From Eledone cirrhosa (lineage: Eukaryota): a DNA stretch of 64,000 nucleotides. Shown here piece by piece: positions 19,301-25,300 of the stretch (positions within the stretch are counted from its first letter, which is position 1; every line of letters begins with the position of its first letter). The notes under the pieces were generated by a model. It saw only the letters and a program-made list of their open reading frames with translations, searched no databases and was not told the origin of the DNA. The stretch is taken from NCBI GenBank assembly GCA_964016885.1, contig OZ024741.1, positions 296,360,001-296,424,000 of the forward strand, given 5' to 3'. The translations under genes and the position numbers were made by a program.

Positions 19301-22300
19301 GTTTCCATTAGTCTTTTCATTGTTGAGCCAATTCTATTTATAGTGGTTTATTCAAATATTGAACATATATATGCAAATAAAAACAGTACTCACTACACAA
19401 AGTAGAGTTACACTGAATATTGAAGTGTCTTTTGTGGTTTTGAAAATGGAAAAGGAAGGGAAAGGCAGGGGCTCTAGTGTCACAGAAGAATGGAGAGAGG
19501 GAAGAGAGAGGGTGATAGACTCTAGGCCTAGGGTGCGGCAGTGTTGAGGCTGCGCCCCACAGACAAGAACACAAAAGCATTCCTGTGGACAATGTCCAGA
19601 GACACTTGCTACAACATCCACCCCACCTCACGGTACTCCTTCCTCAGAAAGGCTGCTGATGTTCCAATCTTGCAGAGGAGCTCGGCAGTATGGGATCCAA
19701 GTCACAACTCCTGGTAGAAGTAGTAACTTGAAATAAAGTATCTTGATCAAGAATACAATGTGCTGCCCAGTCCAAGAAACAAACCCATGACTTTATGATC
19801 ATAAGTCCAATATTAGATAAAATAGAGCTCTTTTAGTGCTAGACTTAATATAAGATCAAAATCACTCCAACTGTGACGATCTCGTTTTTAGTGCATGCAA
19901 GTCTACATCATCTAATGCAGTCTTTCAATCTTTTAAGATGGTGGATGTTATTTGGAGTAGATTTGACTGCTATTTCTAGCACTTTTTGCAACATTGCACC
20001 TCCAATAGTTCATATACATGAATGAGTACGGCATTGTTACAGAAGCTGTTTGGATTAGTGGCCTGGGCGTTTAGCTCACAATCATAAGATCCTGAGTTTG
20101 ATTCCAGGTTGTTCAAAGTGTCTTTGAGCAAGAGACTATTTCATGTTGCCCCAGCTGAGTCAGCTAGCAAAAATATGTTGTATCTGTAATTCAAAGAGCC
20201 AGCTTTGTCATATACAATTTCATGCTGAATCTTCTGAAAATTAAATTAGGGGTCAACAGTCCGGTGGAATGTTCAACCACTTACACATTAATTTCATGAG
20301 CCAGCTGTTCTGTTGTTTGAACAACTGGAACACTTAATGGAACTGATGGAAATCCAACACACTCACACACATACTCACATACACACTCACATATACACAC
20401 GCACATGCACACACACACATATATATTTATACATACACACATACCACAAGCCAGCTATTCAGTTGTTCAAACAACTGGAACATTCATCGTTAAAAGTGAT
20501 GGAGATCCAACAACAACACATTAGATGAGAAGAAGTGAAAAAAAACTTACATTTCTTATTCAAGCCATCATACTGCTCCCTCTGGTGGGTTAAACTATTC
20601 TCTAGACTGTTGTTCTGTTCCTCAAGTTGCTCGTTTCTCTTCATCAAACTAATGTTACCTTCATTTGTTTTAAACTCTTCAATTTCAGCTTTTAAACTGG
20701 AAACCTGTGAGTTAATATAAACATAGTTATTGCTGTTGATGTTGTTGCTGTTGCAGTTACTGCAGGTGGTAGTGGTAGTGGCGGCGGTGGTAGTAGTGGT
20801 CTAGTCTCGTCTAAAGTTTGTCTCAAGCCTCGAGGCTTATCAGGCCAGTGCATATCCCGGTTTCTGTGGCATTAAGTGACTCAGAGTACAAGACTTCCCA
20901 CTGGACAGGACGGCAGTCCATCACAGGATTAAACCCTCAACTATTGCTGGTACTCATTTTCAGCTGAGTATACTGGAGCAACATAAAATGAAATGTTTTG
21001 CTCAAGAACATAACACAACCCAGCCCAGGAATCAAATCCATGACATTATACTCATAAGTCTAATACCCTTACCACTAGGCCATGACTATGTGGTGGTGAT
21101 AGTGCTATGTTTATGTGAATGTATTTAACCCTTTCATGATTGCATTTATAATAGAATGCACACTATTTTAATTAATTAATGAAACATTTTGAGGAATTTA
21201 CTGAAATTGTTATTTCATTATTAAGATAGTAACTTAATGTAAGGTTCTTACATAAAATTATGTTGTAAGATTTTAATTAAAATTGGAAACCTTTAAAATG
21301 GGTGGTTTTACTTCATAGAACCAGAACTGGTTTTGATTAGATTGGTAATTAAACAACCACTACCACCACTATATATCACACAAACAATACTCTATGCACA
21401 CTCATACACAACTGTACATACACACTACCAACACTATTCATCCACACATACATATGACTATATACATAGACTATTGTATATATACATACACATCACTATA
21501 TACACATATAGACAGTACTGCATATACACCACTGATATATATATATATATATATATATATATATATATATAAATTGAAACAAAATGAAAACGAAATTTCA
21601 TTTCTCACTCTTAGTATGGCACTTACTTAAATGTAAGTATGCATGTATACGTACATACATATATGTATACAGACGTACAGTAGCATGCACATATATATAT
21701 ATATATATACATATATACATACATATGCATACAGGTACACATACATATATGCACGCATCAGTTTAGCGGCGCTAACGTCGCTTTGTTCGTTTGTAAACAA
21801 ACTGAACAGCCTGAATTTATGCCATACGGTGTTAAGGCAACCACGTCACCTTTTTGTTCAACACTGACACAGGAACGATGTACTAGTTTCAAGCTTGTTA
21901 GCTATCATCAGCACCGTTTACCCATATGCCAGATAGTTGAACGTTCGAAAGTATATACTTTCCTTATGAAAATTAACGGCTGAGCAGCCTAATTTGCATA
22001 TTGAGTGAGTTAAATCGGTCAGGCATACCGAAAACGATAAATTGAAACAAAATGAAAACGAAATTTCATTTCTCACTCTTAGTATGGCACTTACTTAAAT
22101 GTAAGTATGCATGTATACGTACATACATATATGTATACAGACGTACAGTAGCATGCACATATATATATATATATACATATATACATACATATGCATACAG
22201 GTACACATACATATATGCACGTATCAGTTTAGCGGCGCTAACGTCGCTTTGTTCGTTTGTAAACAAACTGAACAGCCTGAATTTATGCCATACGGTGTTA

Positions 22301-25300
22301 AGGCAACCACGTCACCTTTTTGTTCAACACTGACACAGGAACGATGTACTAGTTTCAAGCTTGTTAGCTATCATCAGCACCGTTTACCCATCTGCCAGAT
22401 AGTTGAACATTCGAAAGTATATACTTTCCTTATGAAAATTAACGGCTGAGCAGCCTAATTTGCATATTGAGCGAGTTAAATCGGTCAGGCATACCGAAAA
22501 CGATAAATTGAAACAAAATGAAAACGAAATTTCATTTCTCACTCTTAGTATGGCACTTACTTAAATGTAAGTATGCATGTATACGTACATACATATATGT
22601 ATACAGACGTACAGTAGCATGCACATATATATATATATATACATATATACATACATATGCATACAGGTACACATACATATATGCACGTATCAGTTTAGCG
22701 GCGCTAACGTCGCTTTGTTCGTTTGTAAACAAACTGAACAGCCTGAATTTATGCCATACGGTGTTAAGGCAACCACGTCACCTTTTTGTTCAACACTGAC
22801 ACAGGAACGATGTACTAGTTTCAAGCTTGTTAGCTATCATCAGCACCGTTTACCCATCTGCCAGATAGTTGAACGTTCGAAAGTATATACTTTCCTTATG
22901 AAAATTAACGGCTGAGCAGCCTAATTTGCATATTGAGTGAGTTAAATCGGTCAGGCATACCGAAAACGATAAATTGAAACAAAATGAAAACGAAATTTCA
23001 TTTCTCACTCTTAGTATGGCACTTACTTAAATGTAAGTATGCATGTATGTATATATATATACATACATACATATGCCTATGGTGGCTGCCAACTCGTTTT
23101 CGAGTATGGCCACTACTTTATATCCATGTAGGAGAACCCCTACCGATGCGCTGAACAAGTGACTTTTTAGTCCAGCCAGCAACTTGAAAACTCTGGTACA
23201 AACACTACACTTGTGACAATTATTGACACATAGTGCTGGGCCCATGGTACCATGTGACGAGAAGTGCATTTGTGACAACATACATATGCCTATACATACA
23301 TATATACATACATATTACATACATATACACATATTACATAGATACATATACACACACACAAATATATATATATATATCAAGTGTCACATCAAAGCTAAAG
23401 TTACAATAGTACAAAAACCAGTGGAATTATTTGAAGCCATCCCTAAGCACTCAATGCAAGAAAAGTATGTATATATATATATATATATATTATATATATA
23501 TATATATATATGCAATGACAACATTGAGAAAAATACTTTGGTAATATTTATATTTGTTTGCACATTGATTAACACAAACAAATTTTAATCTGACATATCT
23601 TCATATATATACACACACACACACATATATATATATATATATATACACACATCACTTTATATACATACATATACACACCGCTATATACCCCCAACACACA
23701 CACACTTCTACACACACCTCACCTGTATACATACCTCTTTCTTCTTTGCATCCTTCATCTCTAGAAGTTCTTGGTTCAATACTTCAATATCACTTAATGC
23801 CTTCTGTAGCCTTTCATCTCCCAAATCTTGAGACAATAGAATCCTGCTCTGTCTCTTCATCACCTCTGTCTCATGATGTAACTAATATTAAGAAATATAT
23901 ATATATACAAAGCTAAAACATATGTAGAGAATTATATATGATAGTATATAATTTCCAAGTAGTTTCAGAATTAGCTCAATCATCATCATCACCGTTTTAC
24001 GTCCATTCTTCCATGCTAGCATGGGTTAGACGGGTTGTTTTGTTGTGGGCAGTGTCCGGTTGGCTGACCTTGTCTTGCTCATATGTGAACTGATTGTGGC
24101 TTGATTTCTACAGCTGGATTCCCTTCCTAACACCAACCTCATTTACAGTGAGTGCTGGATGCTTTTTTTCCGTGGCGCCTACACGTCCACTTTACAGTGT
24201 GGGCTGGGTGCTTTTTTTGCCGTGGCACCTCCACGACCACTTTGCAGTGGAATGATAGGGACCCCAGTCCTATCATCTCATTTCTAGAGCTGAGTAAACT
24301 GGAGCAATGTGAAATAAAGTGTCTTGCTCAAGGAAACCCCATCACCCTTAAATTTCTTACACGTTTAAAGAATTTAAAATGATTTAAATACTAATTTTTC
24401 CTTCTATATATTTGATTATACGTTTAGAGAGAGAGAGAGAGAGAGAGAGAGAGAGAGAGAGAGAGAGAGAGAGAGAGAGAGAGAGAGAGAGAGAGAGAGA
24501 GAGAGAGAGAGAGAGAGAGAGAGAGAGAGAGAGAGAGAGAGAGAGAGAGAGAGAGAGAGAGAGGAGGGATATAGATTATTGATTAGTACACACACACATA
24601 CATCCTCATCACTTTTTATCTGCTTTCCAAGCTGGCATGGGTTGAGTGGGTTGACAAGATCTGAAACTAGGCAGGTCAGATGAGGGATGGTTCTTTGCTC
24701 AGATGCTTTGTTTAAGGCATGATCATGCTTGCTTGCGTGTGCGAATGTGTCTGTGAGGTAGCAGTCAAGAGCCAGCTCCAAAGGCACTCTATAAGATGGC
24801 TGGGCTAGTGATGTGACAGGAGGCCTCTAGTCCACCTTGTATAGAGGTTATGTTGGTGACATGAGGATAAAAGCACTCAGTCCACCCTGTAAGGTGATCG
24901 TGTTGGTGACACAACAAAAACCACCCATTACCCCATTTTGGTGCCACAATAAAAAGCACCCAGTCCACACTGGTTGGTGTTAGGAAGGGCATCCAGCCAT
25001 AGACTAAGCCTAAATACACTTCTGTATAAGCAAGACATTATCTTCTGACCTGAATTGTCTCATAATATGAAAATCCATCTATCCTAAACGTAGAAAATGG
25101 ACGTTAAATGAAGATGATATATATATATATATATACGTAGTTGTGTTATTACATGTTTAATTAATTGGGAGTTAGGGTTATGTTTGCAACATCTAGTCAA
25201 TAAATCATGTGGTAAGCAAGATGAAGCACTCAATGTTATATGCATATTTCCAATTGTCATGTGGGTAGTACATGGCAAGGTATATATATATATAATAATT

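Follow-up and report, generated by a model that had tools for sequence, protein, structure and literature searches.

A non-LTR retrozyme family of Eledone cirrhosa with two fixed insertion ends at (TA)n repeats and a likely Penelope-like partner

Introduction

Animal retrozymes that lack long terminal repeats (non-LTR retrozymes) have been described in mussels, where a family with units of ~350-390 bp reaches ~5,000 copies (Cervera and de la Pena 2020, PMC7229834), and in vertebrates, where unit sizes run from 51 to 972 bp and the elements are presented as derivatives of Penelope-like elements (PLEs) (Li, Clavereau and Pollet 2026, bioRxiv 10.64898/2026.07.22.740005). Arguments about their mode of integration and about the enzyme responsible for moving them still draw on co-occurrence and on similarity to the pseudo-long terminal repeats (pLTRs) of PLEs (PMC7229834; bioRxiv 10.64898/2026.07.22.740005). 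PLE insertions have a published signature: tandem copies are partial, an inverted copy is truncated at its 5' end, only one end carries a tail, and targets are biased toward (TA)n (Craig et al. 2021, PMC8557442). The origin of the tandem and inverted ends and of the tails is called open there. Here we analyze a tandem array of hammerhead-bearing units within 64,000 nt of Eledone cirrhosa DNA (hereafter the window; assembly GCA_964016885.1, contig OZ024741.1, positions 296,360,001-296,424,000 of the forward strand), together with its relatives elsewhere in the genome.

The family resembles the retrozymes described in PMC7229834 in several respects. Its non-coding tandem units measure a few hundred bp, are poor in GC and each contain a single type I hammerhead; copies range from dimers to long multimers, the predicted fold is strongly self-paired but leaves the ribozyme free to form, and PLEs co-occur. 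It differs from those retrozymes in its unit of 420-553 nt with an internal TA hairpin, its U10.1-U11.1 pair, its fixed internal 3' ends, its (TA)n targets and its inverted arms; moreover, cleavage and circles were shown for the published elements, whereas they are predicted here. The main text of that paper contains neither "octop-", "cephalop-" and "squid" nor "inverted". The insertions also resemble those of Hydra-clade PLEs with an endonuclease (EN+), which show partial tandems, 5' truncation, an inverted 5' copy, a one-end tail, (TA)n targets and hammerheads (PMC8557442), but our unit has no open reading frame (ORF), its tail measures ~55-60 nt against the 30-40 bp given in that paper, and it is not similar to the pLTRs of the two PLE families with which we compared it (PLE-A and PLE-B). 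For vertebrate retrozymes, PLE-driven mobilisation has likewise been proposed, and their size range includes our unit; that proposal drew on co-occurrence and pLTR homology in a sample with no mollusc (bioRxiv 10.64898/2026.07.22.740005), whereas the evidence here is insertion anatomy and two fusions. The Dolichopoda repeat pDo500 (~500 bp; PMC2837043), newt satellite 2 and schistosome repeats are comparable in having units up to ~500 bp, a conserved, covarying hammerhead, and single- or double-hammerhead cleavage models, a likeness of description; the thousands of short dispersed arrays with retrotransposition ends set our family apart. The hammerhead literature on which we draw includes PMC3088659, PMC6155905 and PMC2837043.

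A search of the literature at the level of main texts returned no cephalopod retrozyme and no account of retrozyme insertion ends, and an earlier listing in a supplement, Repbase or Dfam is possible. The retrozyme class is already known; the new information is the anatomy of the insertions, and the ends of this family are unusually direct evidence on mobilisation. We consider it highly probable that the array is a young insertion of a high-copy, non-coding hammerhead family, a non-LTR retrozyme likely to have been copied into (TA)n by the reverse transcriptase (RT) and GIY-YIG endonuclease of a PLE. The family is young and numbers ~28,000 hammerheads; its ends are sharp and of two kinds, it has a candidate partner, and some of its head-to-head arrays are near-perfect, which together make retrozyme integration and the origin of PLE ends testable.

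A tandem array with a hammerhead in every unit

An earlier note on this DNA had described three near-identical non-coding units and a partial fourth. Tandem Repeats Finder bears this out, with a period of 466, 3.2 copies and 99% matches at 21569-23048. The insertion lies on the minus strand, is 5'-truncated at ~23048 and ends 3' at ~21569, at a position that we call the long (L) site; a (TA)18 tract at 21535-21570 adjoins this end and is the putative target site. The units differ from one another at 2 to 5 sites or indels. The sole 2-nt indel sits in the 3'-most partial unit, and the cut-to-cut distances are therefore 466 and 466. The three hammerheads were found on the minus strand where the note had placed them, at 22806-22850, 22340-22384 and 21874-21918, with predicted cuts at 22813/22812, 22347/22346 and 21881/21880. 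They bound two cut-to-cut monomers of 466 nt, one at 22347-22812, for which a branched fold is predicted, and one at 21881-22346. The first contains a long, TA-rich hairpin at 22578-22688 (monomer positions ~125-235). A monomer of this size had been called rather long, but 466 nt falls inside the reported range of 51-972 bp, and the cricket repeat is ~500 bp.

On the minus strand, each full unit reads as helix I (6 bp), CUGAUGA, helix II, GAAA, a 2-bp helix III and the triplet GUA. Helix III lies inside a 6-nt palindrome, and a seventh helix I pair is possible in the subfamily of the window. The core (CUGANGA, GAAA, UH), the 6-bp helix I, the 4-bp helix II and the short palindromic helix III are those of a canonical type I hammerhead, which in metazoans has been defined by a helix I of 6 bp, a helix II of 4 bp, a helix III of 1-2 bp and a palindromic loop (PMC4209133). 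The earlier note's term "minimal" does not fit this architecture, because the minimal PLE hammerhead (min-HHR) of the same paper has no helix III, a helix I of 4-5 bp and a long helix II, which is not what the unit contains. Helices III as short as this are stated there to need a dimer, and with 2 bp cleavage would probably proceed as double hammerheads. The comparison with Rfam that the note had called for did return a hammerhead-clan match, but HH9 scored 18.5 bits against a gathering threshold of 52 (E 0.043 on 301 nt) and Hammerhead_1 was not listed separately; a scan of the whole window was dominated by microRNA models matching TA repeats.

We then compared the motif across 98 distinct contexts. 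The base of helix II is a U-U (U10.1-U11.1) pair in 98 of 98, and U-U at this position occurs in natural hammerheads, where it is the best-tolerated mismatch (Perreault 2011, PMC3088659). Core position 7 is U in 64 contexts and C in 34, and the variable pair of helix I is G-U in 63, U-G in 18 and A-U in 7, but never G-G. The U that follows helix I is conserved (96/98), usually with another U opposite it, and A is frequent in loop II. The other frequent variants fall at one loop II base, at the base opposite U1.7 and at flanking positions outside the helices. The two subfamilies are distinguished at free or covarying positions, among them core position 7, loop II and the variable helix I pair. 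Judged from these sequences, the variation is that of a selected hammerhead. Loops I and II may make a contact like the tertiary contact of schistosome hammerheads.

Folded as a circle, monomer 22347-22812 has a minimum free energy (MFE) of -152.9 kcal/mol (z ~ -8 relative to 30 shuffled sequences), and its fold includes helices I and II. Circular monomer folds gave z of -7 to -10 for the sense strand and -4 to -5 for the other strand (30 shuffles each), and 9 of 127 consensus pairs are changed on both sides, some of them depending on the alignment. The octamer ATGCAAAT, at 22458-22465 and also at 21992-21999 and 22924-22931 of the minus strand, is present in 72 of 82 monomers. It is a candidate internal promoter element through which the units may drive their own transcription, with a possible parallel in the promoter of newt satellite 2. 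A different hammerhead-like motif, in which core position 7 is A and helix II is short, belongs to a further repeat family and was seen at L014:2451, at L072:5239 (minus) and at ~3230-3290 of L088.

Thousands of dispersed copies

A 336-nt query for other copies of the unit in the genome gave 153 candidates, of which the best 40 are spread over many contigs with 94-100% identity. A 30-nt core had 10,778 exact matches and its reversed control 0, and a pattern that fixes only the core and helix III had 28,193, equally on both strands, again with 0 for the reversed control. The copies are dispersed, range from monomers to multimers and carry no LTR features; together with the low GC, the non-coding repeat unit of a few hundred bp and the hammerheads in three consecutive units, they agree with the earlier assignment to a retrozyme-type family present as thousands of dispersed multimers.

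Cut-to-cut monomers measure 420-553 nt and form two subfamilies, of ~420-433 and 454-553 nt (24 loci), and most of the change in length lies in the internal TA hairpin. One representative of each subfamily was aligned; identity was 34/38 in the 3' part of the hammerhead, 74/125 columns at positions 8-125 and 195/235 at 195-428. The TA tract within the unit is itself targeted by other elements, including a LINE (long interspersed nuclear element) fragment at L014:790-1082 and PLE-B in L012.

A particularly long structure lies at G000:C28:87722300-87735200 (L063-L064), where 13 units on one strand face 13 on the other, head to head, giving 13 hammerheads in each orientation. The units are 489 nt long, 20 out of 24 match the array majority exactly, and the two ends are the L site and the short (S) site defined below. 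Variants private to an array span all of its units (L045, L004, L109) or both of its arms (L091). This near-identity and these private variants fit repeated copying of one circle. Other arrays have a longer period: two unit types alternate in L177 (A-B-A-B, with 13 shared substitutions), and a three-unit pattern is repeated in both arms of L192. Templates of more than one unit, whether circles or linear molecules, or block duplication at a later time therefore occur as well, and the rolling circle suggested by the note, if purely monomeric, does not explain these two arrays. The locus at C28 adjoins a subfamily 2 copy and the 3' end of a PLE-B.

Words of the unit also appear in 20 sequencing runs from 15 studies, with 14 coded organism labels and one wastewater sample; contamination, diet and true range are alike possible sources. 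Among the runs compared directly with the unit, X11 gave 30 short variant contigs, X2 one 35-nt partial match and X10 one 151-nt contig of depth 4, and contamination may account for any of these.

Insertions end at two internal sites next to (TA)n

To define where insertions begin and stop, we mapped segment ends over 67 stretches: the window, 12 loci from among the best-scoring ones, and a further 54 on contig C1 that surround its first core matches. L005, a duplicate of L004, was left out, and L038 and L041 are one locus, which is counted twice among the four edge-cut pairs given below. Leaving aside ends that a locus edge cuts off, we recorded 116 segment ends. The S site (monomer positions 240-256) accounts for 37 of them and the L site (296-312) for 57, and 92 of these 94 adjoin (TA)n. 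Ten others are alignments ending within the internal TA tract, and 12 lie elsewhere. The 5' junctions are spread over monomer positions 15-463. The note had expected circularly permuted multimers, but permutation is limited to the 5' ends, and every family 3' end of the fixed kind falls at one of two internal sites. Exact patterns searched genome-wide gave the same picture, with 2,606 matches for S followed by (TA)n, 1,798 for L followed by (TA)n, and 3 for the ribozyme cut followed by (TA)n.

In the window, the S site lies at 22562-22568 (monomer positions 245-251) and is read through by the array, and the L site lies at 22503-22508 (positions 305-310). The homologous L site at 21569-21574 is the 3' end of the insertion; the window copy thus has one arm only, whose L end meets (TA)18. 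The predicted fold has a conserved 6-bp hairpin with S in its loop, and L is predicted to be single-stranded.

Many copies form head-to-head pairs. We recorded 36, of which four were edge-cut and 10 unresolved; the other 22 all combine one S with one L end, with 0 S+S and 0 L+L. By our own arithmetic, this outcome (22/22) has a probability of ~1e-7 if ends are independent. All seven resolvable inverted pairs of subfamily 2, read by eye, are likewise S+L. The insertions show 5' truncation, an inverted 5' copy, a tail at one end and a (TA)n microsatellite target, features published for PLEs.

A Penelope-like family, PLE-B, follows the same two-end rule

The retrozyme shares the window with two PLE families, in which remnants of an RT and of a C-terminal GIY-YIG are preserved. 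PLE-B is a Hydra-type element with an inverted arm (61961-64000, continuing in L067:1-2760), one end of which has a ~90-nt tail that the other end lacks. Its Hydra-clade traits are the C-terminal GIY-YIG, a CxCx5C linker, a DKT motif, a hammerhead and (TA)n targets; the RWK motif was not seen within the PLE-B stretch examined. The hammerhead has a long helix II and 8,528 exact matches in the genome. Among 11 PLE-B pairs read by eye, the nine that could be resolved (9/9) are S+L-like, with one end of each type.

PLE-A, the second Hydra-type family, also has an inverted arm (32624-36057), with a broken RT and GIY-YIG ORF at 33134-34614 and hammerheads at 32812 (minus) and 35955 (plus). Solo hammerhead ends related to PLE-A were seen at 7102, 15461 and 56894.

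Tests of 118 5' and 114 3' flanks identified two loci, L072 and L075, in which the retrozyme is joined directly to PLE-B coding DNA, and both are S+L. In L075, the tail-less PLE-B end was predicted beforehand from the retrozyme L end and then found, and in L072 the retrozyme S end is paired with the tail end of PLE-B. Template switching within one reaction would explain both junctions. L012 was rejected as a fusion, because its PLE-B junction lies in the TA tract of the unit. PLE-A was rejected as a demonstrated partner, since only 11-nt words are shared and the junction in L109 is L+L and older. The S and L ends, the (TA)n targets and the identical two-end rule of PLE-B make mobilisation by a Penelope-like enzyme, as the note had proposed, likely. 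Given that, PLE-B is the most likely partner, at slightly better than even odds, and we regard this family in particular as a lead.

Proposed mechanism and alternatives

Copy number, the hammerhead motif, the fixed ends, the (TA)n targets, 5' truncation and inverted arms are direct observations. Building on them, we propose that multimeric retrozyme transcripts would cleave themselves into 420-550-nt monomers and oligomers able to circularise. A PLE endonuclease would nick (TA)n, and each target strand would then prime cDNA at an internal AU-rich site that is predicted to be unpaired, either S (~248) or L (~310), rather than at an RNA end made by the ribozyme. The RT would read across the junction that is left uncut in a circle or multimer and could copy as many as 13 units or more, and two 5'-truncated arms would join head to head. 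In its most specific form, the proposal is that the insertions directly record the retrozyme life cycle. A Hydra-clade Penelope RT would prime twice on circular hammerhead RNA, once from each (TA)n strand after nicking, at fixed, unpaired sites that are separated by 55-60 nt. For each arm it would travel round the circle as often as 13 times or more, and it would be able to change templates between the RNAs of the retrozyme and the PLE. We advance this version tentatively, at a little under an even chance. If true, the double-priming reading would identify the partner enzyme and place priming away from the ribozyme cut; the one-sided "tail" of PLEs would be the RNA between two priming sites.

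Several points weigh against a PLE-mobilised, self-cleaving retrozyme. Helix II opens with an invariant U-U pair, although this is a reported natural variant. The swap of the helix I pair amounts to one or two historical events, so the covariation reflects few events, and the figures for core conservation are inflated because the loci were chosen by a core pattern. The double-hammerhead fold was computed at -20.4, less stable than the dimer MFE of -29.5, and 8 of 9 predicted Xenopus retrozyme dimers stayed uncleaved in vitro (bioRxiv 10.64898/2026.07.22.740005). Self-cleavage, circular RNA and transcription of the units are predictions. Similarity between the unit and the terminal repeats of PLE-A and PLE-B does not exceed 11-nt words. 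The two fusions could instead be nested insertions with target deletion, and the junction in L012 and the PLE-A-like L109, which breaks the S+L rule, indicate that chance adjacency does occur.

The closest alternative keeps the family and the PLE machinery, but the templates would mostly be linear uncut multimers from source arrays, or circular oligomers, with monomer circles a by-product or absent. We treat this as a real possibility, if well short of even. The A-B-A-B order of L177 with its 13 shared substitutions and the three-unit pattern in both arms of L192 point toward such templates; the ribozyme may be slow because of its 2-bp helix III and U-U pair, and a priming end can arise without cleavage, since the 3' ends lie away from the cut. 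However, repeated copying of a single circle is the simplest explanation for the near-identical 13-unit arms on both strands and for the private variants; the two subfamilies both conserve the ribozyme, and related retrozymes accumulate mainly as circles (PMC7229834). It is doubtful that the units are instead orphan pLTRs of an autonomous PLE not found here, and not an independent retrozyme, even though Xenopus retrozymes are often homologous to PLE pLTRs (bioRxiv 10.64898/2026.07.22.740005). In the 67 stretches, 0 units served as the terminal repeat of an ORF and the sole contacts with PLE coding DNA are the two mid-ORF fusions, while units form pure arrays of up to 26 and both PLE-A and PLE-B carry different hammerheads.

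Local expansion of satellite DNA by unequal crossover or slippage, with the hammerhead as a passenger, is largely refuted by the thousands of dispersed loci, the fixed ends and the head-to-head arms that share variants, and the compensatory pairs in the sense-strand fold also speak against it. Slippage in the TA hairpin does change unit length and local duplication would also yield shared variants and A-B-A-B patterns, but we consider this explanation very improbable. Finally, the window copy could regulate the shootin-like gene in whose intron it resides, either by cutting the intron co-transcriptionally or as a source of circles. Three intact tandem hammerheads in a 3-kb intron, sense to the pre-mRNA, would suit such a role, which we nevertheless find unlikely, given that the copy is very young (99% to copies on other contigs) and that a family of ~28,000 units is expected to place sense copies in introns by chance many times over. 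Within its family, the window array is an ordinary copy, and nothing marks it out from other loci.

Host gene and neighbouring elements

The array was said to be sense to an intron of a shootin gene, and we confirmed this position. It sits in a 3,030-nt minus-strand intron between a shootin-1-like exon at 23735-23881 and the next coiled-coil exon at 20551-20704, both with AG/GT ends. A three-sequence profile of the upstream exon had one named match, a chiton "shootin-1-like" protein (E 9e-18), to which three exons of the window align in order; single-exon searches returned nothing or only unnamed fragments. Further shootin-1-like exons lie on the minus strand at 55535-55441, 55357-55192, 52500-52403, 51301-51220, 31655-31562, 18913-18818 and from 15872 onward. 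Approximately 43% of Xenopus retrozyme copies are intronic (bioRxiv 10.64898/2026.07.22.740005), and with ~28,000 units in the genome a sense intronic copy needs no special explanation. The shootin intron is an incidental landing site, and the size of the family implies that many introns of Eledone cirrhosa would carry sense-strand hammerheads. The shootin-1-like protein has an internal duplication, a feature that it shares with its chiton counterpart.

Remnants of non-LTR retrotransposons with RT and PHD-finger matches occupy 27591-28838 and 36216-37830. The 3' end of a LINE-like element, which we take to be RTE-like, lies at 23081-23300 (minus) and again at 38348-38470, with a terminal zinc-finger-like peptide and a microsatellite tail, and the 5' end of the window retrozyme joins the tail of the copy at 23081-23300.

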